Shown piece after piece: positions 17,705 to 41,791 of a DNA stretch of 64,000 bases (the stretch's first letter is position 1; every line of letters begins with the position of its first letter). A program made the translations under genes and the position numbers. The stretch is from the NCBI RefSeq assembly GCF_003334355.1, contig NZ_QOWP01000020.1, one strand, 5' to 3'. The notes under the pieces are model-generated. The model was given only the letters and a program-made list of their open reading frames with translations, made no database searches and had not been told where the DNA came from. This DNA is from Escherichia coli (GTDB lineage: Bacteria > Pseudomonadota > Gammaproteobacteria > Enterobacterales > Enterobacteriaceae).

Positions 17705-17826
17705 AAAAAAAAGCCGACTCATCAAAGTCGGCGTCGTACGAATCAATTGTGCTATGCAGTAATTCAAAAAAGGAAGTAAGACAATATGGAGCGCAACGCC
17801 CATCGCTTGACGTTGCATTCACCTGC
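17705..17826 (-). ncRNA. fnrS: FnrS small RNA (FNR-activated)
   Basis: Reverse complement reads GCAGGTGAATGCAACGTCAAGCGATGGGCG...GCCGACTTTGATGAGTCGGCTTTTTTTT, matching recalled FnrS including its terminator. Confidence 0.85.
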
Positions 17827-17861
17827 AAGAGAGATATTGCCCTGAATGGGTAGAGAGTTTA

Positions 17862-17875
17862 TTGACTTCGCTCAA
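17862..17875 (-). promoter_or_regulatory. FNR binding site of the fnrS promoter (TTGAG-N4-GTCAA)
   Basis: Centred about 42 bp upstream of the fnrS 5' end; matches TTGAT-N4-ATCAA consensus at 8 of 10 positions. Confidence 0.6.
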
Positions 17876-17921
17876 ACTTTGCGGCGTTTTTGTATACAGA
17901 CAGCCGGAAAAATTGCTTTTG

Positions 17922-18926
<1,005 letters not shown>

Positions 18927-19159
18927 TTATTTTGTAGTCTAGCCTTCTGGCCCTGTTACGCAACATCTCATCACCCCATTACCCTGAAATGATTAATAAA
19001 ATTCTGTCTAAATTGAATACAAAAAGCAAAATGCTTTTCCGTATACAAACCGTGTGAAGTGTTAAATAGCGTCTATCATTATCAGAATTATCTGATCATA
19101 TGACGTGGCTTTTTTGCGATCGGATAGCAACAAAAATTGATAAAAATAACGGGATCTCA

Positions 19160-20392
19160 ATGATTACGCACAACTTCAATACCCTGGACTTACTCACCAG
19201 TCCTGTCTGGATCGTTTCGCCCTTTGAGGAACAGTTAATTTATGCCAATAGCGCGGCGAAACTGTTGATGCAAGACCTCACGTTTAGTCAGCTACGAACC
19301 GGACCCTATTCCGTCTCCTCACAAAAAGAACTGCCGAAATACCTCTCCGATCTGCAAAACCAACACGATATTATCGAAATCCTCACTGTTCAGCGTAAAG
19401 AAGAGGAAACAGCATTGAGCTGTCGGCTTGTTTTGCGAAAGCTGACAGAAACAGAACCGGTGATTATTTTCGAAGGTATCGAAGCGCCGGCAACGCTGGG
19501 TTTAAAAGCCAGTCGCTCGGCAAATTATCAGCGCAAAAAACAAGGTTTTTATGCGCGCTTTTTTCTGACTAACTCTGCACCAATGTTGTTGATTGACCCG
19601 TCACGAGATGGACAAATCGTCGATGCTAACCTCGCCGCGCTCAATTTCTATGGTTATAACCATGAAACGATGTGCCAGAAACATACCTGGGAAATAAATA
19701 TGCTCGGGCGTCGCGTCATGCCTATCATGCATGAAATCTCGCATTTACCCGGTGGTCATAAACCTTTGAATTTTGTTCATAAACTGGCGGATGGTTCGAC
19801 TGGTCATGTGCAGACCTATGCCGGACCGATTGAAATTTATGGCGACAAGCTCATGTTATGTATTGTGCATGATATTACTGAGCAAAAACGGCTGGAGGAG
19901 CAGCTGGAACATGCTGCTCACCATGACGCGATGACCGGATTACTGAATCGGCGACAGTTTTATCACATTACGGAACCAGGCCAAATGCAGCATCTCGCCA
20001 TCGCTCAGGATTACAGCTTGTTGCTCATCGACACCGATCGTTTTAAACACATTAACGATCTCTATGGGCATTCTAAAGGTGATGAGGTGTTATGCGCCCT
20101 CGCCCGCACCCTCGAAAGTTGCGCTCGCAAAGGCGATTTGGTGTTTCGTTGGGGAGGCGAAGAGTTTGTCTTATTGCTACCAAGAACCCCACTGGATACC
20201 GCGCTTTCGCTGGCTGAAACTATCCGCGTAAGCGTGGCAAAAGTGAGTATTTCGGGCTTACCACGCTTTACCGTCAGCATTGGTGTGGCGCATCACGAAG
20301 GAAATGAAAGCATCGATGAACTGTTTAAACGCGTTGATGATGCTTTGTATCGGGCGAAAAATGATGGACGCAACCGCGTGCTGGCGGCATAA
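19160..20392 (+). CDS. dgcM: Diguanylate cyclase DgcM (YdaM), PAS-GGDEF
   Basis: 410-aa product from MITHNFNTLD; GGEEF motif present. Confidence 0.9.
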   Translation: MITHNFNTLDLLTSPVWIVSPFEEQLIYANSAAKLLMQDLTFSQLRTGPYSVSSQKELPKYLSDLQNQHDIIEILTVQRKEEETALSCRLVLRKLTETEPVIIFEGIEAPATLGLKASRSANYQRKKQGFYARFFLTNSAPMLLIDPSRDGQIVDANLAALNFYGYNHETMCQKHTWEINMLGRRVMPIMHEISHLPGGHKPLNFVHKLADGSTGHVQTYAGPIEIYGDKLMLCIVHDITEQKRLEEQLEHAAHHDAMTGLLNRRQFYHITEPGQMQHLAIAQDYSLLLIDTDRFKHINDLYGHSKGDEVLCALARTLESCARKGDLVFRWGGEEFVLLLPRTPLDTALSLAETIRVSVAKVSISGLPRFTVSIGVAHHEGNESIDELFKRVDDALYRAKNDGRNRVLAA

Positions 20393-20412
20393 GCCGCGGA
20401 TGCGTCTCGAGA

Positions 20413-20976
20413 TCAACGACTGCGCTTAGCGTGGCGCTCCCAGTTTTCTTGCTTCGCCTGCGCCGTTTTACGTAGTGCGACGTAACACGCCCCGCTGCCG
20501 CCATGATGCGGTAGCGCGGTGCAATATGCCTGAACATCATCAAATTCGGTCAGCCAGCGCGCCACATAGCTGCGGACAATATTGGCATGCGATTTATCAT
20601 CCCGCCCTTTACCATGAATAATCAGCACGTTACGCAAACCATCCGCCAGGGCTTGTTGAATAAAACTGAACACCATTTTGCGGCACTCTTCCACCGGCTG
20701 GCGCAAAAGATTCAGGCTCGCCTGTTGCGGATATTTACCACTGCGCAGCTTATCCAGCACCCCATGTTGCAACCCTTCCCGCCGAAACTCCAGCGGCTGA
20801 CTTAGTGGGATGATGTCGAGAAATCCGGTGGTGAGGAAATTATCAAGCTGCAGCGTGTCGATACGCTGCGGCGCACGTTGGTTACGCGTTGGATGCCAGT
20901 GGACATCGGTAGCACGTTTCAGCGGCTGGACATCTTCCATGGCGTCAAGAAACAGCGATTTGTCGTCAAGGTTCAT
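20413..20976 (-). CDS. smrA: Smr-domain DNA endonuclease SmrA (YdaL)
   Basis: 187-aa ORF at the conserved position between abgR and dgcM. Confidence 0.85.
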   Translation of the reverse strand: MNLDDKSLFLDAMEDVQPLKRATDVHWHPTRNQRAPQRIDTLQLDNFLTTGFLDIIPLSQPLEFRREGLQHGVLDKLRSGKYPQQASLNLLRQPVEECRKMVFSFIQQALADGLRNVLIIHGKGRDDKSHANIVRSYVARWLTEFDDVQAYCTALPHHGGSGACYVALRKTAQAKQENWERHAKRSR

Positions 20977-21203
20977 GTTACATCCTCCCGCAATTAAGAG
21001 CGCGATATGATAACCAGACCGGGTCGGTCCAACAACGTATTACCCAAATTTCCAGTAATAAGTTCCAAATATTGCCGATATTTTAAGCAAAATACTTATG
21101 CATGATTATTCATTCACGATATTAATAATGTAACTTATATTTTCGTGAAATCTGTCACTGAAGAAAATTGGCAACTAAAGGTTAAAACCGTTATAACACA
21201 GTC

Positions 21204-21298
21204 ACCGGCGCAGAGGAGACAATGCCGGATTTAAGACGCGGATGCACTGCTGTGTGTACTGTAGAGTCTGGCGGATGTCGACAGACTCTATTTTTTTA
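21204..21298 (+). ncRNA. mcaS: McaS (IsrA) small RNA
   Basis: ACCGGCGCAGAGGAGACAATGCCGGATTTAAGACGCGGATGCACTGCTGTGTGTACTGTAGAGTCTGGCGGATGTCGACAGACTCTATTTTTTT, matching recalled McaS with its terminator; lies in the abgR-smrA intergenic region. Confidence 0.8.
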
Positions 21299-21305
21299 TG
21301 CAGTT

Positions 21306-22214
21306 TTAACTTTGCAGATAGCCGCATTCTCGCCGGAATTGCGTGATTAATGACGCGGTCAGTGGTGTCTGGCGACTATCACGCCGCTGAATCAAATAAT
21401 AGGCCGCTTTCGGTAAAATTTCGCTAACCGGCAACATCACCAGCCCCTGTCCGTGCAAGGGATCGCAGCCCATTTCTTCAGGCAGTATGCTGAGAAAATC
21501 GCTTTTTGCCACCAGACTGATACAGGCTGAGAACGTCTCGCAGACTACACCGACCTGTGGCGTTTGCGCCTGATCGTCAAGCAATTCACTCAACTGTTTG
21601 TAGTAACTGCCGTGTGGCGTCGGCATTGTCCAGCTGTAATCCAGTAACTGTTTGATCGAACGGGCACCAATGGCGGGGTGTCCCGGGCGGCAAAAGATCG
21701 CGAATTGCTTTTCCAGTAATTTCTCAAAAGTAAATTCGTGGTCGTACGGTCCCTGATAATAGGTATTGATGGTGAAATCCAATTCTCCCTGACGCAATTC
21801 ATTAATCATCGACACCAGTTGCCCTTCCATAATGCGTACTTTTACCTGCGGATGCTGCTGATGAAAACGAGATATGACAGCTGGCATCAGACTGCGGGAA
21901 ATACTGGCCCCCATGCCGATATTAATCTGCCCTGCCAGTTGCCCTTGTCGTTGGCGAATATCCTCTTGGGCTGCGCGCAGCTCTTCAAGAATAAGACTGG
22001 CGTGCTGATAAAAACTTTCACCGGCATCAGTTAACGTCACGCCTTTACTACGGCGAAAAAAGAGTTGCGCCGCTAACCCTTCTTCCAGCTCCTGAATAGA
22101 TTTACTCAGTGCCGGTTGCGACATATTCAACATTCGGCTCGCTCCGCGAATGCTGCCCTGACGAGCCACTTCAACAAAAGCCCGAATTTGATGAATTTTT
22201 ACCTGAAAAGCCAT
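21306..22214 (-). CDS. abgR: LysR-type regulator AbgR
   Basis: 302 aa, divergent from abgABT. Confidence 0.9.
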   Translation of the reverse strand: MAFQVKIHQIRAFVEVARQGSIRGASRMLNMSQPALSKSIQELEEGLAAQLFFRRSKGVTLTDAGESFYQHASLILEELRAAQEDIRQRQGQLAGQINIGMGASISRSLMPAVISRFHQQHPQVKVRIMEGQLVSMINELRQGELDFTINTYYQGPYDHEFTFEKLLEKQFAIFCRPGHPAIGARSIKQLLDYSWTMPTPHGSYYKQLSELLDDQAQTPQVGVVCETFSACISLVAKSDFLSILPEEMGCDPLHGQGLVMLPVSEILPKAAYYLIQRRDSRQTPLTASLITQFRRECGYLQS

Positions 22215-22389
22215 GACGCCACCGATAACCGTTATTTATCAGACCAAAGAAACTGGCATCTACTTTAATGCAGATGATTGTGTCAGGGTAATTTATGAAC
22301 GGTTAAAACTGTGAAAAATCAGTTAGTGATAAGTAAAAACTATCGCTACGTGAACCGGGTCACACTTTTTACTGATGACGGGAAAGGTT

Positions 22390-23700
22390 ATGGAGTCTTT
22401 GAATCAATTTGTTAATTCGCTTGCCCCAAAATTATCGCACTGGCGACGTGATTTTCATCACTATGCAGAGTCTGGCTGGGTGGAATTCCGCACTGCCACC
22501 CTTGTTGCGGAAGAATTGCAGCAGCTCGGCTATTCACTGGCGCTGGGCCGCGAAGTAGTTAATGAAAGTAGCCGGATGGGACTACCTGATGAACTCACTC
22601 TACAACGCGAATTCGAGCGCGCTCGTCAACAGGGTGCGCTAGCACAATGGATTGCGGTTTTTGAAGGTGGTTTCACGGGTATCGTCGCCACCCTGGATAC
22701 CGGTCGCCCCGGTCCGGTGATGGCTTTCCGTGTCGATATGGACGCGCTGGATCTCAGTGAAGAGCAGGATGTCAGCCATCGCCCCTACCGCGACGGTTTT
22801 GCGTCATGTAACGCCGGAATGATGCATGCCTGTGGTCATGATGGACATACCGCCATTGGGCTTGGGCTGGCGCATACCCTTAAACAATTCGAGTCCGGAC
22901 TACATGGCGTCATCAAACTGATTTTTCAGCCTGCAGAGGAAGGTACGCGTGGCGCGCGGGCGATGGTCGATGCAGGTGTCGTAGATGATGTTGATTATTT
23001 TACTGCCGTGCACATTGGCACTGGCGTACCTGCGGGCACCGTGGTGTGCGGCAGTGATAATTTTATGGCAACCACCAAATTTGACGCGCACTTCACCGGT
23101 ACCGCCGCTCACGCAGGCGCAAAACCAGAAGACGGTCACAATGCCTTGTTGGCGGCAGCACAAGCCACTCTTGCACTGCATGCAATCGCCCCGCACAGCG
23201 AAGGAGCTTCCAGAGTAAACGTGGGCGTTATGCAGGCAGGAAGCGGTCGTAACGTTGTTCCTGCCTCGGCGTTGCTGAAAGTGGAAACACGCGGGGCCAG
23301 CGACGTCATTAATCAATATGTTTTTGACCGTGCACAACAAGCGATTCAGGGCGCAGCAACCATGTATGGTGTCGGCGTTGAAACTCGTCTGATGGGTGCA
23401 GCTACCGCCAGTTCTCCTTCGCCGCAATGGGTCGCATGGTTGCAAAGTCAGGCGGCTCAGGTCGCGGGGGTCAATCAGGCCATTGAACGTGTTGAAGCGC
23501 CTGCGGGTTCCGAAGATGCCACATTAATGATGGCCCGCGTGCAGCAACATCAAGGGCAAGCCTCCTACGTGGTGTTTGGCACACAGCTGGCGGCAGGTCA
23601 TCACAACGAAAAATTCGATTTTGACGAGCAGGTTCTCGCTATTGCCGTCGAAACGCTGGCGCGCACCGCGCTCAATTTTCCCTGGACGCGAGGTATCTGA
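22390..23700 (+). CDS. abgA: p-Aminobenzoyl-glutamate hydrolase subunit A (M20 peptidase)
   Basis: 436-aa product from MESLNQF. Confidence 0.9.
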   Translation: MESLNQFVNSLAPKLSHWRRDFHHYAESGWVEFRTATLVAEELQQLGYSLALGREVVNESSRMGLPDELTLQREFERARQQGALAQWIAVFEGGFTGIVATLDTGRPGPVMAFRVDMDALDLSEEQDVSHRPYRDGFASCNAGMMHACGHDGHTAIGLGLAHTLKQFESGLHGVIKLIFQPAEEGTRGARAMVDAGVVDDVDYFTAVHIGTGVPAGTVVCGSDNFMATTKFDAHFTGTAAHAGAKPEDGHNALLAAAQATLALHAIAPHSEGASRVNVGVMQAGSGRNVVPASALLKVETRGASDVINQYVFDRAQQAIQGAATMYGVGVETRLMGAATASSPSPQWVAWLQSQAAQVAGVNQAIERVEAPAGSEDATLMMARVQQHQGQASYVVFGTQLAAGHHNEKFDFDEQVLAIAVETLARTALNFPWTRGI

Positions 23701-25145
23701 TGCAGGAAATCTATCGTTTTATCGACGATGCGATTGAAGCCGATCGCCAACGTTATACCGATATTGCCGATCAAATCTGGGATCATCCAGAAACACGTTT
23801 TGAAGAGTTCTGGTCAGCGGAGCATCTGGCTTCGGCGCTGGAATCTGCAGGCTTCACCGTTACCCGCAACGTAGGCAATATCCCAAATGCCTTTATTGCT
23901 TCGTTTGGTCAAGGCAAACCGGTTATCGCCCTGCTGGGAGAATATGACGCCCTGGCAGGTTTAAGTCAGCAAGCTGGTTGCGCGCAACCTATATCCGCGA
24001 CGCCCGGTGAAAATGGTCACGGTTGCGGACACAATTTGCTGGGAACCGCCGCCTTTGCCGCTGCAATAGCCGTCAAGAAATGGCTGGAACAATATGGGCA
24101 AGGCGGCACAGTGCGCTTTTATGGTTGTCCTGGCGAAGAAGGCGGCTCGGGTAAAACGTTCATGGTCCGCGAGGGGGTATTTGATGATGTGGATGCGGCA
24201 CTCACCTGGCACCCGGAAGCCTTTGCCGGCATGTTCAATACCCGCACGCTGGCAAACATTCAGGCATCATGGCGCTTTAAAGGGATCGCAGCACATGCCG
24301 CGAATTCCCCTCATTTGGGACGCAGCGCCCTTGATGCCGTAACGTTGATGACCACTGGCACCAACTTCCTCAACGAACATATTATTGAAAAAGCGCGCGT
24401 ACACTATGCCATCACAAATAGCGGCGGGATCTCACCCAACGTGGTCCAGGCGCAGGCAGAAGTGCTTTATCTTATCCGCGCCCCCGAAATGACCGACGTG
24501 CAGCATATTTATGATCGGGTCGCCAAAATCGCCGAAGGTGCGGCATTGATGACCGAAACCACGGTTGAATGCCGCTTCGACAAAGCCTGTTCCAGTTATC
24601 TCCCGAATCGCACCTTAGAAAATGCCATGTACCGAGCCCTATCCCATTTTGGTACCCCGGAATGGAACTCCGAAGAACTGGCTTTTGCGAAACAAATTCA
24701 GGCTACGCTCACCTCCAACGATCGGCAAAACAGTCTGAATAATATCGCCGCAACCGGTGGCGAAAACGGCAAGGTTTTTGCACTACGTCATCGTGAAACG
24801 GTACTGGCGAATGAAGTCGCTCCATATGCCGCCACCGATAACGTGCTTGCAGCATCGACAGATGTCGGCGACGTCAGTTGGAAACTGCCTGTTGCCCAGT
24901 GTTTCAGCCCCTGTTTTGCCGTCGGTACACCGCTACATACGTGGCAACTGGTTAGCCAGGGGCGAACATCTATTGCTCATAAAGGAATGCTGCTCGCGGC
25001 GAAAACTATGGCTGCAACCACAGTCAATCTCTTCATTGATTCAGGGCTATTGCAAGAATGCCAACAAGAGCATCAGCAAGTTACGGACACGCAACCGTAT
25101 CACTGCCCTATCCCGAAAAACGTGACACCGTCACCTTTAAAATAA
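23700..25145 (+). CDS. abgB: p-Aminobenzoyl-glutamate hydrolase subunit B
   Basis: 481 aa; start overlaps the abgA stop by 1 bp. Confidence 0.9.
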   Translation: MQEIYRFIDDAIEADRQRYTDIADQIWDHPETRFEEFWSAEHLASALESAGFTVTRNVGNIPNAFIASFGQGKPVIALLGEYDALAGLSQQAGCAQPISATPGENGHGCGHNLLGTAAFAAAIAVKKWLEQYGQGGTVRFYGCPGEEGGSGKTFMVREGVFDDVDAALTWHPEAFAGMFNTRTLANIQASWRFKGIAAHAANSPHLGRSALDAVTLMTTGTNFLNEHIIEKARVHYAITNSGGISPNVVQAQAEVLYLIRAPEMTDVQHIYDRVAKIAEGAALMTETTVECRFDKACSSYLPNRTLENAMYRALSHFGTPEWNSEELAFAKQIQATLTSNDRQNSLNNIAATGGENGKVFALRHRETVLANEVAPYAATDNVLAASTDVGDVSWKLPVAQCFSPCFAVGTPLHTWQLVSQGRTSIAHKGMLLAAKTMAATTVNLFIDSGLLQECQQEHQQVTDTQPYHCPIPKNVTPSPLK

Positions 25146-25178
25146 CAACAACGCAAACACAACAACCGAGGAATGTCC

Positions 25179-26705
25179 ATGAGTATGTCATCCATACCGT
25201 CATCCTCCCAATCCGGGAAGCTCTATGGCTGGGTCGAAAGAATTGGTAACAAGGTTCCCCATCCTTTTTTGCTCTTTATCTATTTGATTATCGTACTCAT
25301 GGTGACGACGGCAATTTTGTCGGCCTTTGGCGTCAGTGCGAAAAACCCGACCGATGGTACGCCGGTCGTGGTGAAAAACCTGCTCAGTGTGGAAGGATTA
25401 CACTGGTTTTTACCCAATGTTATTAAAAACTTTAGCGGTTTTGCCCCACTTGGCGCGATCCTGGCGCTGGTTTTAGGTGCCGGTCTGGCGGAGCGCGTCG
25501 GCTTACTGCCAGCGCTAATGGTTAAAATGGCATCGCATGTTAATGCCCGCTACGCCAGTTATATGGTGCTGTTTATTGCTTTTTTCAGCCACATTTCTTC
25601 CGATGCGGCGTTAGTGATCATGCCACCGATGGGTGCGCTGATTTTTCTGGCGGTGGGCAGACATCCAGTTGCAGGTTTACTGGCCGCCATTGCAGGCGTA
25701 GGTTGCGGCTTTACGGCTAATTTACTGATTGTCACAACCGACGTGTTGCTGTCGGGGATCAGCACGGAAGCGGCGGCTGCGTTCAATCCGCAAATGCACG
25801 TCAGTGTAATTGATAACTGGTATTTTATGGCCAGCTCCGTAGTCGTACTGACGATTGTTGGCGGCCTGATAACCGACAAAATCATCGAACCACGGTTAGG
25901 TCAATGGCAGGGAAACAGCGATGAGAAACTGCAGACATTGACCGAAAGTCAGCGTTTTGGTTTACGCATAGCAGGTGTCGTATCGCTACTTTTTATTGCT
26001 GCGATTGCGCTGATGGTGATCCCGGAAAACGGGATATTGCGCGATCCGATTAATCACACCGTGATGCCATCACCCTTTATTAAAGGTATCGTGCCACTGA
26101 TCATTCTTTTTTTCTTTGTGGTCTCGCTGGCTTATGGCATCGCTACTCGCACAATTCGACGTCAGGCGGATTTACCGCATTTAATGATTGAACCGATGAA
26201 AGAGATGGCGGGATTTATCGTGATGGTTTTTCCCCTCGCCCAGTTTGTCGCCATGTTTAACTGGAGCAACATGGGGAAATTCATCGCCGTGGGGCTGACC
26301 GATATACTGGAAAGTTCAGGGCTTAGCGGCATCCCGGCGTTTGTCGGTCTGGCGTTGCTTTCCTCTTTCTTATGCATGTTTATCGCCAGCGGTTCCGCAA
26401 TCTGGTCGATTCTGGCCCCCATTTTCGTACCAATGTTTATGCTACTTGGCTTTCACCCGGCATTTGCGCAAATCCTCTTTCGTATTGCCGACTCATCCGT
26501 ATTGCCTTTAGCGCCAGTATCTCCTTTTGTTCCACTGTTTCTTGGATTCCTGCAACGCTACAAACCAGACGCGAAACTGGGTACTTACTATTCGTTAGTC
26601 TTGCCCTATCCACTTATCTTTTTGGTGGTATGGCTGCTGATGTTGCTGGCGTGGTATCTTGTCGGTCTGCCGATAGGTCCGGGTATTTACCCACGTTTGT
26701 CTTAA
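25179..26705 (+). CDS. abgT: p-Aminobenzoyl-glutamate transporter AbgT
   Basis: 508-aa product; start chosen by spacing from the GAGGAA RBS (alternative ATG at 25173). Confidence 0.9.
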
Positions 26706-26715
26706 GAGAGAACGG

Positions 26716-27231
26716 ATGCTGAGATTACTTGAAGAAAAAATTGCCACGCCACTGGGTCCACTGTGGGTGATTTGCGATGAGCAATTTCGCCTGCGGGCGG
26801 TTGAATGGGAAGAGTACAGCGAACGCATGGTGCAGCTGCTGGACATCCATTATCGCAAAGAAGGCTATGAGCGCATTTCTGCCACCAATCCAGGCGGTTT
26901 AAGCGACAAGCTTCGTGAATATTTTGCCGGTAATCTTAGCATTATTGATACGCTTCCCACTGCTACGGGGGGGACGCCATTTCAGCGCGAAGTCTGGAAA
27001 ACACTACGCACTATCCCCTGCGGGCAGGTAATGCATTACGGCCAACTGGCTGAGCAATTGGGCCGTCCTGGCGCGGCGCGTGCCGTTGGTGCGGCAAACG
27101 GATCGAATCCCATCAGCATCGTCGTACCTTGCCATCGGGTTATTGGCCGAAACGGCACCATGACCGGATATGCAGGCGGAGTTCAGCGAAAAGAGTGGTT
27201 ATTGCGCCATGAAGGTTATCTTTTGCTGTAA
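26716..27231 (+). CDS. ogt: O6-alkylguanine-DNA methyltransferase Ogt
   Basis: 171 aa; PCHRV active-site motif. Confidence 0.9.
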
Positions 27232-27425
27232 ACATTAAACAATTTGTGCCAGCTTGTTCACACTTTTATGTAAAGTTACCCTTAGCAACTTAAGGGTTTT
27301 CAAATAGATAGACATATATTTACATCTAATATCGGAATTCTCTGCTGTTAAGGTTTGCTTAGGCTTACTTGCTCCCTAAAAAGATGTTAAAATTGACAAA
27401 TATCAATTACGGCTTGAGCAGACCT

Positions 27426-28178
27426 ATGATCCCGGAAAAGCGAATTATACGGCGCATTCAGTCTGGCGGTTGTGCTATCCATTGCCAGGATTGCAGCATC
27501 AGCCAGCTTTGCATCCCGTTCACACTCAACGAACATGAGCTTGATCAGCTTGATAATATCATTGAGCGGAAGAAGCCTATTCAGAAAGGCCAGACGCTGT
27601 TTAAGGCTGGTGATGAACTTAAATCGCTTTATGCCATCCGCTCCGGTACGATTAAAAGTTATACCATCACTGAGCAAGGCGACGAGCAAATCACTGGTTT
27701 CCATTTAGCAGGCGACCTGGTGGGATTTGACGCCATCGGCAGCGGCCATCACCCGAGCTTCGCGCAGGCGCTGGAAACCTCGATGGTATGTGAAATCCCG
27801 TTCGAAACGCTGGACGATTTGTCCGGTAAAATGCCGAATCTGCGTCAGCAGATGATGCGTCTGATGAGCGGTGAAATCAAAGGCGATCAGGACATGATCC
27901 TGCTGTTGTCGAAGAAAAATGCCGAGGAACGTCTGGCTGCATTCATCTACAACCTGTCCCGTCGTTTTGCCCAACGCGGCTTCTCCCCTCGTGAATTCCG
28001 CCTGACGATGACTCGTGGCGATATCGGTAACTATCTGGGCCTGACGGTAGAAACCATCAGCCGTCTGCTGGGTCGCTTCCAGAAAAGCGGCATGCTGGCA
28101 GTCAAAGGTAAATACATCACCATCGAAAATAACGATGCGCTGGCCCAGCTTGCTGGTCATACGCGTAACGTTGCCTGA
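27426..28178 (+). CDS. fnr: Fumarate/nitrate reduction regulator FNR
   Basis: 250-aa product from [29 protein letters not shown] with the N-terminal Cys cluster. Confidence 0.95.
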
Positions 28179-28329
28179 TTTTTCCGCATAACTCACTATC
28201 CTTCTGTCATATCATTAAATTTTTCTGATTTATTGATCTGGCAGAAGGTTCATCACTGTTTCATTCACCAGATATGGGTTAATCTTTTAATTACAAACTG
28301 CGTTGACAGTTGTTGTAAGGAGACCCTGT

Positions 28330-29280
28330 ATGGCTATGTATCAGAACATGCTCGTTGTTATCGATCCTAACCAGGACGACCAACCAGCATTGCGGCGAGC
28401 TGTTTATTTACATCAACGGATTGGTGGCAAAATTAAAGCCTTTTTGCCGATCTATGACTTCTCATACGAAATGACCACCCTGCTCTCCCCGGACGAACGT
28501 ACCGCTATGCGTCAGGGCGTCATCAGCCAGCGTACAGCCTGGATCCACGAGCAGGCAAAATATTATCTCAATGCTGGCGTTCCCATTGAAATTAAAGTGG
28601 TCTGGCATAACCGTCCTTTCGAAGCCATCATTCAGGAAGTGATCAGCGGCGGGCACGATTTGGTGCTAAAAATGGCGCACCAACATGACCGTCTGGAAGC
28701 GGTGATTTTTACGCCAACGGACTGGCATCTGTTACGCAAATGCCCAAGCCCGGTGTGGATGGTGAAAGACCAGCCGTGGCCGGAAGGAGGTAAGGCGCTG
28801 GTGGCGGTGAATCTCGCCAGTGAAGAGCCGTATCATAATGCGCTCAATGAAAAACTGGTCAAAGAGACGATCGAACTGGCAGAACAAGTCAACCATACCG
28901 AAGTTCATCTGGTTGGCGCTTACCCAGTAACGCCAATTAATATCGCGATTGAACTGCCGGAATTTGATCCGAGCGTTTATAACGATGCCATTCGTGGGCA
29001 ACATTTGCTGGCAATGAAAGCCCTGCGGCAGAAATTCGGCATTAATGAAAACATGACGCACGTAGAAAAAGGTCTGCCAGAAGAGGTGATTCCTGATTTG
29101 GCGGAGCACTTACAGGCGGGGATTGTGGTTCTGGGCACGGTAGGACGCACCGGTATTTCAGCAGCATTCCTCGGCAACACGGCGGAACAGGTGATTGATC
29201 ATCTTCGCTGCGACCTGCTGGTCATTAAACCTGACCAGTATCAGACACCCGTTGAACTGGATGACGAAGAAGACGATTAA
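28330..29280 (+). CDS. uspE: Universal stress protein E
   Basis: 316-aa product from [15 protein letters not shown]. Confidence 0.9.
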
Positions 29281-29300
29281 CGACTCTTCAATAACTGACA

Positions 29301-29327
29301 AGGCCCGAGTTATCGGGCCTATTTTTT
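29301..29327 (+). terminator. Rho-independent terminator downstream of uspE
   Basis: AGGCCCGA-GTTA-TCGGGCCT hairpin followed by TTTTTT. Confidence 0.6.
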
Positions 29328-29329
29328 AC

Positions 29330-29587
29330 TTACTGCTCTTCGCCGCCAAGGAAATAAATTCCCAACGGGATTGCCAGCAACACAGTAAAGACCAGGCTAT
29401 AAACAAAAATCATCGATGACTGAATCACATACATTGATGTCGTCCACTCAGACAGCGGAATATTGTACTGTTCTATAACGCCGCCGATGGTCGCGCGAGT
29501 CACAACCGACGCCGCAATAATGAAAACCGCCAACAAACCAAAGAGAAATTTCTTCCCTTTCGCTGACTTCAGTTTCGCCATAATCAT
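29330..29587 (-). CDS. ynaJ: Small membrane protein YnaJ
   Basis: 85-aa ORF with two hydrophobic segments at the conserved position. Confidence 0.8.
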   Translation of the reverse strand: MIMAKLKSAKGKKFLFGLLAVFIIAASVVTRATIGGVIEQYNIPLSEWTTSMYVIQSSMIFVYSLVFTVLLAIPLGIYFLGGEEQ

Positions 29588-29830
29588 GATGTAATCCTTG
29601 TGCAGACAAATTTCTTGTTACCTAAACGTAACAATACCATGACATTTCACCGTTGTCTGCTCTGAAAACCTCACCTCTTAGCTGGATTTACAATCAACGC
29701 ATTGATTAGTTAGCTAATGTTGCTACTTCCTTCCCTGACTATTGATGATCTGAATGAATTGTCGCGGTAAAATAGCCCCGCCAGGGGTTTCCGGCATGAC
29801 GACAATTATCTGGAGGAGCCTGATAAAACA

Positions 29831-30862
29831 ATGATCGCTGAACTGTTTACAAATAATGCGCTTAATCTGGTCATTATTTTCGGTAGCTGCGCAGCATTGA
29901 TTCTGATGAGCTTTTGGTTTCGCCGTGGAAATCGTAAAAGAAAAGGATTTTTATTCCATGCGGTGCAATTTTTAATCTACACCATAATTATCAGTGCTGT
30001 TGGTAGCATTATTAATTATGTTATAGAAAACTATAAACTCAAATTTATCACTCCAGGCGTTATCGATTTTATCTGTACGTCCCTGATTGCGGTTATTCTG
30101 ACGATTAAGCTATTTCTGCTGATTAATCAGTTTGAAAAACAGCAGATTAAAAAAGGTCGCGATATCACCAGTGCGCGGATTATGTCGCGTATCATCAAAA
30201 TCACCATTATTGTGGTGCTTGTTCTGCTTTATGGCGAACATTTCGGCATGAGCCTTTCTGGCTTGCTGACCTTTGGTGGTATTGGTGGTCTGGCTGTCGG
30301 TATGGCCGGTAAAGATATTCTGAGTAACTTCTTTTCCGGGATTATGCTCTATTTCGACCGTCCTTTCAGTATTGGCGACTGGATCCGTTCACCGGACAGA
30401 AATATCGAAGGTACAGTAGCGGAAATTGGCTGGCGAATTACCAAAATTACGACCTTTGATAATCGTCCATTGTACGTACCGAACTCGCTGTTTTCGTCGA
30501 TCAGCGTAGAAAACCCAGGACGAATGACCAACCGCCGCATTACCACGACCATTGGTTTACGTTATGAGGATGCGGCAAAAGTGGGCGTTATTGTCGAAGC
30601 TGTACGTGAGATGCTGAAAAATCACCCGGCCATCGACCAGCGACAAACCTTACTGGTTTATTTCAACCAGTTTGCTGACTCTTCATTGAATATTATGGTT
30701 TATTGCTTTACCAAAACCACGGTATGGGCTGAATGGCTTGCTGCACAGCAAGACGTTTATTTGAAGATTATCGATATTGTACAGTCACACGGCGCGGACT
30801 TTGCCTTCCCCAGCCAGACGCTGTATATGGATAACATTACACCGCCGGAACAGGGTCGCTAA
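29831..30862 (+). CDS. ynaI: MscS-family mechanosensitive channel YnaI
   Basis: 343 aa. Confidence 0.9.
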
Positions 30863-30871
30863 ATCAGACAT

Positions 30872-30902
30872 CACTGGCGTTATGCACAAGGGTAACGCCA
30901 GT
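30872..30902. terminator. Hairpin between convergent ynaI and mppA, possible bidirectional terminator
   Basis: 10-bp perfect stem ACTGGCGTTA / TAACGCCAGT with an 11-nt loop; weak U-tracts. Confidence 0.4.
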
Positions 30903-30912
30903 TCCCATCACA

Positions 30913-32526
30913 TCAATGCTTCACAATATACATAGTCCGACTGTACGCCACATCTTCAGGATTATTAATGGGATAACCTTTCAGCCACGGCTTGATTAAT
31001 CGTCCATTGGTATATTGATAAATTGGTGCAATCGGTGCTTGCTCCATGAGGATTTTTTCTGCCGCGTTGTAATCGGCATTACGCGCTTTAACGGTATTTT
31101 CCGTCGATGCCTGGGCCAGAACTTTGTCATATGCCGGATTGTTAAAGCGTGAAATATTTCCTGAATGCGTTGACGTTAATAATGTCAGGAAAGTGGAGGG
31201 TTCATTATAATCCCCCACCCACGAGGCGCGGATAACATCAAAATTGCCGGTGTTACGGCTATCGATATAGGTTTTCCATTCCTGATTTTGCAATTTAACA
31301 TCTACGCCAAGGTTCTTTTTCCACATCGATGCTACAGCAATCGCAATTTTTTGATGGTTTTCTGAAGTGTTATACAAAAGCGTCAGCTTCAGCGGTTTTT
31401 GCGGACCATAACCAGCTGCGCTCAACAAAGTTTTTGCCTGCGCATTCAGTTCTTCCTGACTCATTTGTTCAAACGGCGAAGGTTCCGGCGTAAATCCCGC
31501 GGTAACATCTGGTGTAAAATGCCACGCTGGCTTTTCGCCCGTCCCTAATACTTTTTCGGTCATCAGGCGGCGATCTATCGTCATACTTAATGCCAGACGA
31601 ACGCGCTGATCTGCCGTCGGCCCTTTTTGCGTGTTAAACGCATAATAATAGGTCCCGAGCTGCGGCGGCGTATAAACCTGCCCCGGAATATCCTTCAACA
31701 GCTTCTGATACATATTTTTCGGGAAGGATTCGGTGATATCAATATCCCCCGCGAGGTAACGCTTAGTGGCTGCGGATTCCTGATTAATTGGCAGGAAGGT
31801 CACTTTTTGCAGTACCGTTTTGGCGTTATCCCAATAATGGGTATTCGGTACCACGACCAGTTTTTCATTGACTACGCGCTCTTTAAGAACATAAGCGCCA
31901 TTGCCGATCAGATTTCCGGGTTTCGTCCACTCTTTACCGCTTTCTACGTTGGCTTTTTGCACCGGGAAGAAGGCAAAGTTAGCGGTTAAATTCACAAACC
32001 ACGGCAACGGTTTATCAAGCTGAATTTTCAAAGTATGGGCATCAACTGCGGTGACGCCAAGCTGGTCAGGCGTAGCTTTACCATCAATAATCGCCTGTGC
32101 GTTGTTGATTCCCGCCAGCGCGGCAAACCATGCAAATGGCGACAATGTTTTTGGGTCCACCAGACGTTGCCAGCTGTAGACAAAATCTTGCGCCGTTACC
32201 GGTGTGCCATCCGCCCATTTTGCGTTATCGCGCAGGGTAAAAGTCCAGATACGGTTGTCATTACTTTTCCACTGAGTCGCAACGCCGGGGACAATCTCCC
32301 CTTTTTCGTTCTGATTCACCAGACCTTCAAACAGATCGCGAATGACCTGAATCTCTGGCAGGCCCACGGCTTTAGCGGGATCCAGCGACGCAGGCTCATC
32401 TTTAATGTGGCGCACCAGCTCCTGCTTCTCTGCCAGTACTGTGCCGCTCGGAACTTCTGCAGCATACGAAAGAGAAATGCTGCTGACCAACAGCGCACAA
32501 CACGTGACTGAAACAGAGTGCTTCAT
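30913..32526 (-). CDS. mppA: Periplasmic murein tripeptide-binding protein MppA
   Basis: 537-aa product from MKHSVSV. Confidence 0.9.
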   Translation of the reverse strand: MKHSVSVTCCALLVSSISLSYAAEVPSGTVLAEKQELVRHIKDEPASLDPAKAVGLPEIQVIRDLFEGLVNQNEKGEIVPGVATQWKSNDNRIWTFTLRDNAKWADGTPVTAQDFVYSWQRLVDPKTLSPFAWFAALAGINNAQAIIDGKATPDQLGVTAVDAHTLKIQLDKPLPWFVNLTANFAFFPVQKANVESGKEWTKPGNLIGNGAYVLKERVVNEKLVVVPNTHYWDNAKTVLQKVTFLPINQESAATKRYLAGDIDITESFPKNMYQKLLKDIPGQVYTPPQLGTYYYAFNTQKGPTADQRVRLALSMTIDRRLMTEKVLGTGEKPAWHFTPDVTAGFTPEPSPFEQMSQEELNAQAKTLLSAAGYGPQKPLKLTLLYNTSENHQKIAIAVASMWKKNLGVDVKLQNQEWKTYIDSRNTGNFDVIRASWVGDYNEPSTFLTLLTSTHSGNISRFNNPAYDKVLAQASTENTVKARNADYNAAEKILMEQAPIAPIYQYTNGRLIKPWLKGYPINNPEDVAYSRTMYIVKH

Positions 32527-32862
32527 AAGTTTCCCTCTAACCGACATTAAAATTGATGCGTAATTATTTGTTTCGCCTTAAAGAAATGCAAACAACTTCC
32601 ATCAAAAAAGTGACAAAGGAAGCATCAAATGTTTTAAGTATCAATATATCAAATCAGATTTAGTGTAAATAATAGTCTCCAAAATGCGGTAAAGCACATA
32701 GAACTCCGAACACTACGTTCGGGCTTCGCACGTTCAAACCCGTTTTCGGTATCATAATCAGCATCTGTCGCCATTGTACGAAGAATAAAAAATGACCAAA
32801 ACGTTGAAAGGAACTGAGAATACGTTAAGAGAAGAATTAAATTAATGTATCAGCAAGTAGTG

Positions 32863-33762
32863 CTAAACAGCACCTTTATACTTCAGCCTATCTATAAATA
32901 ATGAGAATGCCGAGCCAGCATGTCGACGGTGTGGATAGTACAGGTGATAACCGGGTAAATCTGGTGTGAATTTATCCAAAACACGTATCAGTTTTTTTTC
33001 TTTAATAGCCCGCTCAACCTGATCATAAGGTAGATACGCCAATCCATGCCCATCAATTGCAGCATCAATGATCAGGTCTATCGTATTCAGTAAAAGCTGA
33101 CCTTCCATGCGAACACGAACTTCACGTCCACCGCGTATTAATCTCCAGCGATTTGCTGTACCCGATGTGGGAAGATACAAATTAATTGCCTGATGATCTA
33201 TTAATTGTGACACTGACGTTGGAACACTTCGGCGAGAAAAATAATCCGGTGAGCCAACAATAGCCATTGGTATATCTGGCCCGATTCGAATGGCGATCAT
33301 ATCTTTATCCATCTCCCCACCCAGACGGACGCCTGCATCAAAACGTTCAGAAACGACATCGGTCAAACCATAATCAATGGTGAGCTGAATATCAATTTCA
33401 GGATGCGATTTCAGGAATGTGCGCATTGCTGGTAACAATATCGTTTTTGCTGCATGTTCTACAGTAGTAATACGTATTGTCCCGGATGGGCGGTTCTGCA
33501 GATCGCTCAGGGATGCCATGGCTGAATCTATGTCATGCAACATAGGGCCAAGAACAGACAAAAGATGCTCGCCCGCTTCAGTTGGAACAACGCTGCGCGT
33601 GGTTCGCGTCAGAAGCCGCAATCCCAATCGTTCTTCTATACGACGCACTATCTGGCTTAAAGCTGACTGCGCCATGCTCAGGCGGGCTGCTGCACGAGTG
33701 AAGCTACGCTCCTCTGCAACGACGACAAACGCCATCAGATCAGCGATTTCTTCACGCTTCAT
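32863..33762 (-). CDS. pgrR: LysR-type regulator PgrR (YcjZ)
   Basis: 299 aa. Confidence 0.85.
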   Translation of the reverse strand: MKREEIADLMAFVVVAEERSFTRAAARLSMAQSALSQIVRRIEERLGLRLLTRTTRSVVPTEAGEHLLSVLGPMLHDIDSAMASLSDLQNRPSGTIRITTVEHAAKTILLPAMRTFLKSHPEIDIQLTIDYGLTDVVSERFDAGVRLGGEMDKDMIAIRIGPDIPMAIVGSPDYFSRRSVPTSVSQLIDHQAINLYLPTSGTANRWRLIRGGREVRVRMEGQLLLNTIDLIIDAAIDGHGLAYLPYDQVERAIKEKKLIRVLDKFTPDLPGYHLYYPHRRHAGSAFSLFIDRLKYKGAV

Positions 33763-33899
33763 TCAGTATCTCCATGCAATCTATTAATCATTTAAATGAT
33801 AGGTCTAATCATGATTTTGGGTCTAATCAACTTAATGATCAATATCTATAGTGATATCACCAACCGTTAAAACGAACCGACAACTCCATGAGGAACGGA

Positions 33900-34820
33900 A
33901 TGATGAATAATAAAGTCAGCTTCACTAACAGCAATAATCCAACCATCTCTTTGTCTGCAGTGATCTATTTCCCTCCAAAATTTGATGAAACCCGTCAGTA
34001 TCAGGCAATTGTGTTATCTCACCCAGGTGGGGGCGTTAAAGAACAAACGGCCGGAACCTATGCCAAAAAACTGGCGGAAAAGGGATTTGTCACTATTGCT
34101 TATGACGCATCTTATCAAGGTGAAAGTGGCGGCGAGCCGCGTCAGTTAGAAAACCCATACATTCGTACTGAAGACATCAGTGCCGTGATTGATTACCTGA
34201 CAACGCTTTCTTATGTCGACAATACCCGAATTGGTGCGATGGGAATTTGTGCCGGTGCAGGATATACAGCCAATGCTGCAATTCAGGATCGCCGCATCAA
34301 GGCCATCGGTACCGTTAGTGCGGTCAATATTGGTTCGATATTCCGTAATGGTTGGGAAAACAATGTGAAATCTATTGATGCCCTGCCATACGTTGAAGCG
34401 GGTTCAAACGCCAGAACCAGCGATATTAGCAGCGGAGAATACGCCATTATGCCACTGGCACCAATGAAGGAGTCCGATGCGCCGAACGAAGAACTGCGTC
34501 AGGCCTGGGAGTATTACCACACCCCTCGCGCGCAGTATCCAACAGCACCGGGTTACGCTACTTTGCGCAGCCTTAACCAGATTATTACCTATGATGCTTA
34601 CCATATGGCGGAAGTGTACCTGACTCAGCCGACGCAGATTGTGGCGGGCAGCCAGGCAGGGAGCAAATGGATGAGTGACGACCTGTACGATCGAGCATCA
34701 AGCCAGGATAAACGCTATCACATTGTTGAAGGCGCAAACCATATGGATCTTTATGACGGCAAAGCCTATGTGGCTGAAGCAATTTCAGTATTAGCTCCGT
34801 TCTTTGAGGAAACTCTGTAA
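33900..34820 (+). CDS. ycjY: Alpha/beta-hydrolase YcjY
   Basis: 306-aa product; start inferred by length match. Confidence 0.8.
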   Translation: MMNNKVSFTNSNNPTISLSAVIYFPPKFDETRQYQAIVLSHPGGGVKEQTAGTYAKKLAEKGFVTIAYDASYQGESGGEPRQLENPYIRTEDISAVIDYLTTLSYVDNTRIGAMGICAGAGYTANAAIQDRRIKAIGTVSAVNIGSIFRNGWENNVKSIDALPYVEAGSNARTSDISSGEYAIMPLAPMKESDAPNEELRQAWEYYHTPRAQYPTAPGYATLRSLNQIITYDAYHMAEVYLTQPTQIVAGSQAGSKWMSDDLYDRASSQDKRYHIVEGANHMDLYDGKAYVAEAISVLAPFFEETL

Positions 34821-34890
34821 TGAAACATATTCAAATCCGCAATAGTGATATGGCCTGGCATATTGCTGCCAATAATCTGGGATAATTTTC

Positions 34891-35073
34891 ATGAAAAATG
34901 TACTGATTCTTGGTGCTGGCGGTCAGATAGCCCGCCATGTGATTAATCAACTGGCAGATAAGCAAACCATTAAACAAACTTTATTTGCCCGTCAGCCAGC
35001 AAAAATCCACAAACCCTATCCAACTAATAAAATGCAAACAACTTCCGGCAAAAAAGTGATACAAGATCGATGA
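34891..35073 (+). pseudogene. Short ORF resembling the N-terminal Rossmann (GAGGQIA) fragment of an NAD(P)-binding protein; likely gene remnant (ymjC-like)
   Basis: 60 aa, MKNVLILGAGGQIARHVINQLADKQ..., terminates after about 60 codons. Confidence 0.4.
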
Positions 35074-35154
35074 CATAGCGTTGAAGAAAAGGATTTGATA
35101 ATCCGCAAAATTTGCACAACACTGCCTGTAATACTTCCTGAACCAGAGACGATC

Positions 35155-35857
35155 ATGACCGTAACCCGCCCACGCGCCGAACGCGGCGCATTTCCGCCCG
35201 GAACAGAACATTACGGACGTTCATTATTGGGCGCGCCGTTAATCTGGTTTCCTGCCCCTGCAGCCAGCCGCGAAAGTGGTTTGATTCTGGCTGGCACTCA
35301 CGGTGATGAAAACTCTTCGGTCGTCACGCTCTCCTGTGCTCTGCGGACGTTGACACCTTCTTTGCGCCGTCATCATGTGGTGCTGTGTGTGAATCCTGAC
35401 GGCTGCCAGTTGGGGTTACGGGCCAATGCTAATGGTGTGGATTTAAACAGAAACTTTCCGGCGGCGAACTGGAAGGAAGGTGAAACCGTTTATCGCTGGA
35501 ACAGCGCCGCTGAAGAACGCGATGTCGTATTACTGACAGGTGACAAACCTGGCTCCGAACCTGAAACCCAGGCGCTGTGCCAGCTTATACACCGCATTCA
35601 ACCTGCCTGGGTGGTCTCATTCCACGATCCACTGGCCTGTATTGAAGATCCCAGACACAGCGAATTAGGCGAATGGCTGGCTCAGGCGTTTGAATTGCCT
35701 CTGGTAACCAGCGTCGGTTATGAAACGCCTGGCTCTTTCGGCAGTTGGTGTGCAGATCTGAACTTGCATTGCATCACCGCAGAGTTTCCGCCCATCTCCT
35801 CCGACGAAGCCAGCGAAAAATATCTCTTTGCGATGGCAAACTTGCTGCGCTGGCATC

Positions 35858-35883
<26 letters not shown>
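35155..35883 (+). CDS. mpaA: Murein peptide amidase A (gamma-D-Glu-Dap amidase)
   Basis: 242-aa product from MTVTRPRAERGAFPPG. Confidence 0.9.
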
Positions 35884-36833
<950 letters not shown>

Positions 36834-36941
36834 TGTTGTCGCGGTGGTCTGCGGATTAAGCGCAAATAGCGTTTGCTGTGTTATTGACAGTTAGCATAAA
36901 CTAGGTGTGACGTTAACTATATGTAAACAGGAAAGATAATC

Positions 36942-37448
36942 ATGTCACAAACCGTTCATTTCCAGGGCAACCCGGTTACAGTCGCCAATTCCATCCCGCA
37001 GGCGGGTAGCAAAGCGCAGACTTTTACTCTCGTGGCAAAAGATCTGTCTGACGTCACCCTCGGTCAGTTTGCGGGTAAACGCAAAGTGCTGAACATTTTC
37101 CCGAGTATTGATACCGGTGTTTGCGCCGCATCAGTACGTAAGTTTAACCAACTGGCAACCGAGATCGACAACACCGTTGTGCTGTGTATCTCTGCCGATC
37201 TGCCGTTCGCCCAGTCTCGTTTCTGCGGCGCAGAAGGTCTGAACAACGTTATCACCCTCTCCACTTTCCGTAACGCTGAATTTCTGCAAGCCTACGGTGT
37301 GGCAATTGCTGATGGCCCACTGAAAGGTCTGGCAGCGCGTGCCGTTGTGGTTATTGACGAAAATGACAATGTGATTTTCAGCCAGCTGGTGGATGAAATC
37401 ACCACCGAGCCGGATTACGAAGCAGCTCTGGCTGTACTGAAAGCATAA
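36942..37448 (+). CDS. tpx: Thiol peroxidase Tpx
   Basis: 168 aa. Confidence 0.95.
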
Positions 37449-37452
37449 TTTA

Positions 37453-37487
37453 ATATGCCTGATGGTGTTGCACCATCAGGCATATTC
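37453..37487. terminator. Bidirectional terminator hairpin between convergent tpx and tyrR
   Basis: 16-bp perfect inverted repeat AATATGCCTGATGGTG / CACCATCAGGCATATT. Confidence 0.5.
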
Positions 37488-37491
37488 GCGC

Positions 37492-39033
37492 TTACTCTTC
37501 GTTCTTCTTCTGACTCAGACCATATTCCCGCAACTTATTGGCAATCGCGGTATGTGAAACGCCGAGACGTTTTGCCAGTTTGCGCGTGCTGGGATAATTG
37601 CGATAAAGCTGGGTTAATACCGAGCGTTCAAAACGGCTGGTGATTTCGTCCAGCGAACCTTCCATCGCATCTTCGCCCACGGCTACCGTTGCGGCGTCAT
37701 AATCCGGCAACAAAATATCCTGTGGACGCAGCTCATAACCGTCCAGTTGTGTCAGTGCGCGATAGATAGCGTTCTTTAACTGCCGCACATTTCCCGGCCA
37801 CGCATAACGCGTAAGTACAGTATTCAGGTCAGCGGCCAGTTTCGGACGCGGCACGCCCTGCTCGTCGGCAAAGCGGGCGACGAACAGCTCAGTTAACGGC
37901 ATGATGTCCTGCGGACAGTCACGTAGCGGTGGCAGATTGAGCGTCAACACGTTCAGACGATAATAGAGATCTTCACGGAACATGCCTTTTTGCACCAGTT
38001 CGACCAGATTCTTCTGCGTAGCGCAAATCACCCGCACATCGACATGCACCTCATGGTCTTCGCCAACCCGACGGAAAGTGCCATCATTAAGGAAACGCAG
38101 TAATTTCGCCTGCATCCGTGGTGACATTTCCCCTATTTCATCCAACAGCACCGAACCACCGTTCGCCTGCTCAAAGAATCCTTTCTTCCCTTCCGGAGCA
38201 TGACCAAACAGTTCACTCTCGACCGCATCTTCCGGTATAGACGCACAGTTCAGCGCCAGGTAAGGTTTGCCCGCTCTGGGGCTTGCCTGATGGCAGGCGT
38301 AGGCAAAGAGATCTTTACCTGTACCTGTGTCACCCGTAATCAGCAGCGGCGCGCTTAGCATCGCCAGTTTCTGCGCCTGTTCGACAACATGCTTCATTTT
38401 CGGGCTGACGGCGACAATTTGACTGAAGGCGCTGACGTCCTGGGCGGCGACATTTTGCAACTGGCGGCCCATACGAATCGTTGATCGCAACATCACCACC
38501 GCACCGGTCAGGACGTGTTGATCATTTTCATCCTGAAGATAAACAGGCGTAATCTCCATCAGGAAATTCTGCCCATTAATAACGACATGCTCGTTATGCG
38601 AATCTTGCGGTTCGCTTTCCAGCCAACGTAAAAAATTAAAGCCGTTAATCAATTGTGCGGCGGTATGGTTGCGCAGGCGATCCAATTTTTGCCCAAAAAG
38701 CTGACAGCTCGCCGGGTTCGCCATATCCACTTTGCTTTTCATATCGACAGAGAGCACAGGTTCAGGCAACGCCTCCAGTAACGCGCTCAACGCCAGATGC
38801 TCACGTTCGGAAGGCATCCACGGGACAGTACGCACATCGGTAACACCCGCAATACGGCGTATTTCGGCCATCAGACTGCTGAAACTCTCAAACTCCAGTT
38901 CAGCAAAATTGAGGTAGATTCGCCCAATGGGATCAATCTCAATACCGCGTAAATCAATGCCTCTTAGCACGAGTAGATCGAGTAATTCGCGGGTCAGACC
39001 GAGTCGGTCTTCACAAAAGACTTCCAGACGCAT
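37492..39033 (-). CDS. tyrR: Transcriptional regulator TyrR
   Basis: 513-aa product from MRLEVFCEDRLG; sigma-54-type AAA+ central domain and C-terminal HTH. Confidence 0.95.
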   Translation of the reverse strand: MRLEVFCEDRLGLTRELLDLLVLRGIDLRGIEIDPIGRIYLNFAELEFESFSSLMAEIRRIAGVTDVRTVPWMPSEREHLALSALLEALPEPVLSVDMKSKVDMANPASCQLFGQKLDRLRNHTAAQLINGFNFLRWLESEPQDSHNEHVVINGQNFLMEITPVYLQDENDQHVLTGAVVMLRSTIRMGRQLQNVAAQDVSAFSQIVAVSPKMKHVVEQAQKLAMLSAPLLITGDTGTGKDLFAYACHQASPRAGKPYLALNCASIPEDAVESELFGHAPEGKKGFFEQANGGSVLLDEIGEMSPRMQAKLLRFLNDGTFRRVGEDHEVHVDVRVICATQKNLVELVQKGMFREDLYYRLNVLTLNLPPLRDCPQDIMPLTELFVARFADEQGVPRPKLAADLNTVLTRYAWPGNVRQLKNAIYRALTQLDGYELRPQDILLPDYDAATVAVGEDAMEGSLDEITSRFERSVLTQLYRNYPSTRKLAKRLGVSHTAIANKLREYGLSQKKNEE

Positions 39034-39180
39034 GGGAACCTTCACCTGAAAAAAGAACAATTAATATGATGATATGACACTATTTGGATAGCAGGAAGGT
39101 TTCTGTCAACAATCATTGACACAAAGACGGAAAAACGGGCACTTCGGCGTAAAGATATCCGGTCAGCACCCGATATTGCA

Positions 39181-40242
39181 TTATTTTTCGCTGGGCGTTT
39201 TGCCTTTTTGCAGCGTTTCTTTCACCTGACCGATAAGCTGACGACGGAAATCCCCGAGGCGAGGTTTGTCATCGTCAATCCACGGCAGCGGGCGGCAAAG
39301 CTCCATAGCTTTAATCCCGAGTCGTGCCGTCAGAAGTCCTGCACCAATCCCCTGAGCTGCGCGGGTAGACAAACGAGCAGCGAGATCTTGCGACATCCAG
39401 TCCATCCCCACTTCGCGCACCAGTTCGCTGGCTCCGGCAAAAGCGATATTCAGCAATACCAGCTTAAACAGACGCAAACGGCTGTAATACCCCAGTTCAA
39501 TGCCATACAGCGTGGCGATGCGATTAATTAAACGCAGATTGCGCCAGGCGATAAACGCCATATCGACCAACGCCAGCGGGCTGACCGCAATCATCAACGT
39601 TGATTCCGCCGCCGAACGGCTGATTTCGCGCCGCGCCTGGGCATCTAAAACTGGCTGGACCAAATGCGCATACAGGCTGACCACTTCACGGTCGTTTTGC
39701 GTTTCATGGATTGAGGCATACCAGCGTTGCAGCGCCGGATGCGACTGATCAATACCCGCCTGCTGCGCCAGTTTTTCGCAAAATGCGCGGCCTTTGCCCG
39801 TGCCGTGGCTATGCAATAAATCACGCGCTTCGTCGCGTTCATGGGCGCGCTGTCGCAAGCGCCATAAGCGCCGCCACTCTGTTACCACAGAACCTACGCC
39901 AGCGCCGATAATCAATGCCCCAGCGGCACATCCACCCAGCGCCACCCAGTCCTGGGTTTGCCAGGCATTCATTGTCCACTGTACACCCTGCCCGACAACG
40001 CTTGCGCCAAACAGAGCCAGCCCGCCCATCACCATTTTGCGCCACAGGCTGCGTTTCGGACGTAACGCTGCGTCCATTACCGCTTCGACTTGCCCCTCTT
40101 CTTCCTGCGCTTCGTCGAGCGTGGCCGGGGCAAAATTTTGCGCCTGATTTTCGTCAAAGGTCTGCTGCGCCCTGAATTTAGGATTCTGATCGACCTCCAG
40201 AGGACCGTCGAAATCAATACGTGGTTTTAACGGTTCGGTCAT
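39181..40242 (-). CDS. ycjF: UPF0283 membrane protein YcjF
   Basis: 353 aa; overlaps ycjX by 4 bp. Confidence 0.9.
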
Positions 40243-41636: not shown

Positions 41637-41791
41637 TGCTGTCCTGTGCTGCTCTGAAGACCAGAAAAAAAATCATTCGTAAGGATATGAATGTGGGGGC
41701 CAGGCCATTGATTATCAACTGCCCGTGTTGTCATCGACCGGCGAACTCCATAAGATGTGCAGCATTCACGTTCGGACGGAGTTCCTGACCT

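Follow-up and report, generated by a model that had tools for sequence, protein, structure and literature searches.

The ynaJ-ynaI spacer of a K-12-related Escherichia coli is uninterrupted at the site that IS5F occupies in K-12

The 243 bp between ynaJ and ynaI in the 64-kb stretch of E. coli DNA analysed here (the window) almost certainly represent the ancestral, never-interrupted divergent promoter/5'-leader region of a wild K-12-related strain, with IS5F having been gained in the K-12 lineage. The first-pass annotation had described 29588-29830 as 243 bp of ordinary sequence without IS5, and this is borne out by the ORF coordinates together with blastn. The locus is arranged as follows; PSS-12 is a human faecal isolate with identical gene coordinates at the ynaJ-ynaI locus.

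27369 to 28178, plus strand: ORF of fnr; the PSS-12 CDS, in the same coordinates, is 27426..28178
28303 to 29280, plus strand: ORF of uspE, annotated in PSS-12 as 28330..29280
29330..29587, minus strand: ynaJ, ORF of 85 aa, DUF2534 small membrane protein; RefSeq names the identical locus ynaJ
29588..29830, no strand: ynaJ-ynaI divergent intergenic region, exactly 243 bp from start codon to start codon, uninterrupted
29831..30862, plus strand: ynaI, ORF of 343 aa, low-conductance MscS-family mechanosensitive channel by RefSeq annotation
next after the fnr-uspE-ynaJ-ynaI set, minus strand: mppA

The YnaJ and YnaI translations are identical to MG1655 b1332 and b1330, respectively.

IS5F in MG1655 and its absence from the window

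The first-pass annotation had placed an IS5 copy between these two genes in K-12, and its reading depended on MG1655 having one. The MG1655 record, NC_000913.3, shows IS5F at exactly this place:

1394891..1395922, minus strand: ynaI (b1330)
1396044..1397238: 'insertion sequence:IS5F', with insH4 (b1331), between ynaI and ynaJ
1397365..1397622, plus strand: ynaJ (b1332)

The same ynaI-IS5-ynaJ order is found in the K-12 record BZKR3G40. In MG1655, IS5F is 1195 bp long and its ends read GGAAGGTGCGAACAAG and, as the reverse complement of the other end, GGAAGGTGCGAATAAG; the terminal inverted repeats are 16 bp and imperfect (15/16 matching). TTAG stands on both sides of the element, a 4-bp target-site duplication that fits YTAR, and CTAA/CTAG have been described as targets of K-12 IS5 copies (PMC11677980). 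The insH gene of IS5F is co-directional with ynaJ; in the orientation of the window it reads toward ynaJ and has its 3' end on the ynaJ side. When MG1655 IS5F was compared with the whole 64-kb window by blastn at E<=1e-3, zero matches were returned, so the gap and the rest of the 64 kb are free of IS5, complete or fragmentary.

The pairwise alignment with MG1655 that the first-pass annotation had proposed as a check locates the difference to the base. In BLAST the window aligns in reverse complement with MG1655 1419620..1361754, as two collinear blocks: window 7334..29713 corresponds to MG1655 1419620..1397239 (99.71%, 61 mismatches), and window 29710..64000 to MG1655 1396043..1361754 (99.75%, 85 mismatches). 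The blocks share four window bases and lie 1195 bp apart in MG1655. The shared bases are the following feature.

29710..29713, no strand: TTAG, the IS5 target tetranucleotide, present in one copy in the window and doubled around IS5F in K-12

Across the collinear stretch, IS5F and its TTAG duplication are the only structural difference between the window and MG1655. Once IS5F and one TTAG are taken out, the MG1655 sequence equals window 29588-29830 at 243/243 positions (0 mismatches). With a slash marking each junction at the TTAG, MG1655 reads ...GATTAGTTAG/GGAAGGTGCG... and ...GCACCTTCC/TTAGCTAATG...; in the orientation of the window, as printed by BLAST, the junctions are ...GATTAGTTAG/GGAAGGTGCGAATAAG... 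and a CAAGTTCGCACCTTCC-type end/TTAGCTAATG.... The window thus has the properties of an empty allele, namely flanks that match the occupied allele exactly, a single target copy and zero extra bases; a second TTAG copy or IS5-derived bases arising from an insertion are absent at 29710-29717.

K-12 is left with 126 bp between IS5F and ynaJ and 121 bp between IS5F and ynaI, with one TTAG copy counted in each. On the preferred explanation, one IS5 copy (IS5F, insH4, b1331) transposed, in the K-12 lineage, into the TTAG equal to 29710-29713. This duplicated the 4 bp and cut the 243-bp gap into the 126-bp (ynaJ) and 121-bp (ynaI) parts.

Distribution among complete E. coli genomes

Of 5426 complete E. 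coli genomes, 5423 gave a match to a spacer query of 771 bp across the ynaJ-ynaI gap. The locus is uninterrupted in 5056 of the 5423 (~93%), in that a single place accounts for 80% or more of the query; this count is a maximum for uninterrupted copies, since the search merges pieces separated by as much as 885 bp and insertions shorter than 885 bp could count as uninterrupted. The 37 full-length rows sampled from along the ranking each consisted of a single piece, at 98.8-100% identity. The locus is split at the site in the remaining 367 genomes.

A junction query, made of 120 bp of the ynaI-side flank and 120 bp of IS5 and counted at coverage of at least 80%, detected the K-12 junction in 353 genomes. 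The four junction-positive genomes that were sampled (ER1709, NEB10-beta, HB101 and THB42-F5) are all laboratory strains; for THB42-F5, the record says 'transconjugant', i.e. a laboratory recipient, and the locus annotation is K-12-like. The K-12 junction is lacking in 14 of the 367 interrupted genomes, and the one of these examined is FDAARGOS_943. By genome counts rather than by a tree, the empty state is the majority state and phylogenetically broad (5056/5423 uninterrupted vs 353 with the K-12 junction). Given these counts and the sampled strains, the occupied allele essentially marks the K-12 lineage, and the empty one is the norm for the species.

Sequence features of the spacer

No ORF of at least 40 aa lies inside the gap in the ORF list of the window, an Rfam scan of window 27000-33000 gave no match at E<=1, and a strict sigma-70 consensus scan of 29200-30000 gave no promoter, the gap included. 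Over the same interval, the strict sigma-70/terminator scan returned two terminator-like hairpins, the second of which was taken as a chance occurrence.

29301-29320: terminator-like hairpin between the uspE and ynaJ 3' ends
29796..29779, minus strand: terminator-like hairpin inside the gap

In a looser home-made promoter scan the best matches reached only 8/12 to consensus and are a weak hint. For ynaI, the best promoter-like match has a -10 of TAAAAT at 29768-29773; for ynaJ, it has a -10 of TATTGT with an upstream TG at 29636-29631. On both strands, these matches are gene-proximal to the IS5 site. The predicted core promoters of ynaI and ynaJ are probably located between the IS5 point and each start codon. 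Because the best promoter-like matches are gene-proximal, insertion of IS5F would spare the core promoters, a weak indication that both genes stay expressed in K-12. This agrees, weakly, with the ready detection of ynaI mRNA in the K-12 strain Frag1 (PMC3508906).

Two symmetric sequences are also found in the gap. A perfect 7-bp inverted repeat, TTGTTAC-N6-GTAACAA, occupies 29615..29634, 28-47 nt upstream of the ynaJ start codon, and could be a putative operator or 5'-leader hairpin. The palindrome AATCAA-cgca-TTGATT (AATCAAcgcaTTGATT) at 29692..29707 directly adjoins the IS5 target. Its half-sites look like those of the FNR/CRP family in inverted order, and because of this order the palindrome is probably not an FNR site. 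More generally, an FNR site near 29692-29715 was rejected, as judged by reading of the sequence alone, the half-sites being either misarranged (ATCAA-N4-TTGAT) or a poor match.

Relation of the source strain to K-12

The window differs from MG1655 by 146 substitutions over about 56.7 kb, or about 0.26%. The substitutions are patchy, amounting to about 0.09% over 29710-60000 and being dense at 22000-27000 and 60000-64000. These patches hold 42 mismatches (22000-27000, abg genes) and 59 mismatches (60000-64000, puu genes), which suggests recombination tracts. A 3-bp deletion is present at window 25153 relative to MG1655 1401800-1401802, between abgT and abgB. A further difference from MG1655 concerns ycjV.

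43851..44933, minus strand: ycjV, intact 360-aa ORF

At 43979 the window carries an additional base compared with MG1655 1381774, and MG1655 annotates ycjV/ymjB as a frameshifted pseudogene. The ycjV frameshift is a second K-12-specific lesion absent from the window strain, so that both marks of the K-12 lineage in this region, IS5F at ynaI/ynaJ and the ycjV frameshift, are missing.

From window 7334 onwards the sequence is collinear with the MG1655 Rac prophage (intR to sieB region). Window 1..7333 has no match to MG1655 1355000-1445000, a range that holds the whole of Rac. This part of the window contains several small phage-like ORFs, one with a weak DicA-like match, and two larger ones:

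750..2042, minus strand: 430-aa protein with no NCBIfam match
2091..4094, minus strand: BetT-like BCCT transporter, 752 bits to NF007399

Among matches to a 25-kb piece of the window (17000-41999), PSS-12 ranks first, with a listed identity of 100.0%; many wild isolates come next, at 99.9%. The Rac-like prophage of PSS-12, with an annotated DUF2254 protein and BCCT transporter, carries IS5, IS1, IS1203 and IS421 and differs from the window upstream of ~15000. The IS5 lies inside the Rac integrase gene (13200..14180 of the PSS-12 locus L007), and IS1, IS1203 and IS421 are close by; the window has none of the four. Since the IS copies of PSS-12 are absent from the window, the source is a different strain from PSS-12.

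The first-pass annotation had proposed a non-K-12 or a pre-insertion lineage. The former is upheld by the 146 mismatches over about 56.7 kb, the intact ycjV, the best match to PSS-12 and the absence of any IS5. The latter holds in part: the ancestral empty state has been kept, as in 5056 of 5423 genomes, but the strain is not a direct ancestor of K-12. Because of the divergence of about 0.26% and the intact ycjV, the source is a wild, phylogroup-A-like close relative of K-12 in which the ancestral empty site has been retained, rather than a K-12 ancestor.

Origin of the empty site

An empty site could also arise by loss. If the strain descended from an IS5F-bearing K-12-like ancestor and lost IS5F by precise excision with restoration of a single TTAG, exactly the observed gap sequence would be left, and the window is indeed near K-12, from which it departs by only about 0.09% over 29710-60000. 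From the sequence alone nothing speaks against excision, since precise excision restores the exact sequence; it is the distribution alone that argues against it. The empty site is common to ~93% of genomes, spanning 98.8-100% identity, and the sampled junction-positive genomes are laboratory strains in 4/4 cases. Also weighing against such descent, the window is without the K-12 ycjV frameshift, has zero IS5 copies anywhere and differs from MG1655 at 146 positions. We infer that the empty state is ancestral, and loss by excision is regarded as highly improbable. The least probable of the explanations, scarcely to be credited, is that IS5 is truly in the organism and is missing from the assembly through collapse of the repeat, a repeat-resolution artefact. 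Short-read assemblies often lose or misplace IS elements; however, a collapsed IS normally breaks the contig and does not yield an exact pre-insertion sequence, and the junction here consists of one clean TTAG, free of gaps and Ns and identical to that of thousands of complete, closed genomes.

The remaining alternative concerns the gap itself, where some other unrecognised element (a small RNA, a small ORF or a mobile-element remnant) would make the description as ordinary sequence wrong. The perfect 7-bp inverted repeat at 29615-29634, the minus-strand hairpin at 29796..29779 and the palindrome at 29692-29707 can be cited in its favour, but short palindromes are usual in AT-rich promoter regions. 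With no Rfam match at E<=1, no ORF of at least 40 aa within the gap, and a sequence that is identical to both K-12 flanks and conserved species-wide as the ynaJ-ynaI spacer, an unrecognised element is improbable. The ancestral, never-interrupted spacer is accordingly the preferred explanation.

A cluster of YTAR targets and a second insertion

The TTAG target of IS5F belongs to a run of three YTAR tetranucleotides near the midpoint of the 243-bp gap, of which 29710-29717, TTAGCTAA, is a palindrome.

29706..29717, no strand: three adjacent YTAR tetranucleotides, TTAG TTAG CTAA, from a YTAR scan

In FDAARGOS_943, a 915-bp ISSfl7-like (IS5-family) element (2086..3000 of locus L002) interrupts the ynaJ-ynaI spacer, with a junction overlap that equals window 29707-29709, 1-3 bp from the IS5F site. 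The element is unlike IS5F in its length of 915 bp, its frameshifted transposase and its 3-bp overlap, and its insertion is an event independent of that of IS5F, in the same TTAG-TTAG-CTAA cluster. The ISSfl7-like spacer insertion was found in this one genome only, which is IS-rich and has 32 copies. The window has neither insertion.

The two independent IS insertions within 3 bp at 29706-29717 are the basis for a tentative suggestion, itself doubtful, that the cluster is a putative recurrent landing pad of IS5-family elements. Equally doubtful is that IS5F, with the insH 3' end facing ynaJ at 126 bp from its start codon, may alter expression of ynaJ and/or ynaI in K-12. If true, findings made in K-12 on the YnaI channel and YnaJ would be unrepresentative of wild E. 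coli, in which the spacer is intact as in the window.

Comparison with known insertions at the locus

The empty ynaJ-ynaI site is a correct, routine and already known strain polymorphism, and the K-12 copy is documented. It is IS5 copy 4 of BW25113, at ynaI/ynaJ, which is 100% identical to wild-type IS5 and whose deletion has been described (PMC11677980), and it has been named as 'the known IS5 element b1331 to the right of ynaI' (PMC2072959). In a W3110 stock, recombination between the b1331 IS5 and a second IS5 next to ogt deleted ynaJ, uspE and fnr; fnr deletions occur in MG1655 stocks as well (PMC2072959), and the fnr-267 lesion of CGSC6300 is named in PMC3045373. Without IS5F, the window strain misses one of the two IS5 copies that recombine to the ynaJ-uspE-fnr deletion in some K-12 stocks. 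The empty site marks the source as non-K-12 E. coli and has little import beyond strain typing. For K-12 itself, it means that the control region shared by ynaI and ynaJ holds, in the reference, an insertion absent from ~93% of complete E. coli genomes.

Compared with the IS5F/insH4 insertion of K-12 (MG1655, W3110 and BW25113), the window has the same locus, the same flanking genes and identical flanks, and differs by the absence of the 1195-bp IS5 and of the second TTAG. Its uninterrupted spacer is that of wild E. coli, with no material difference at the locus from PSS-12, MLI023K1 (100% match to the spacer query), Nissle 1917 and NCTC86.
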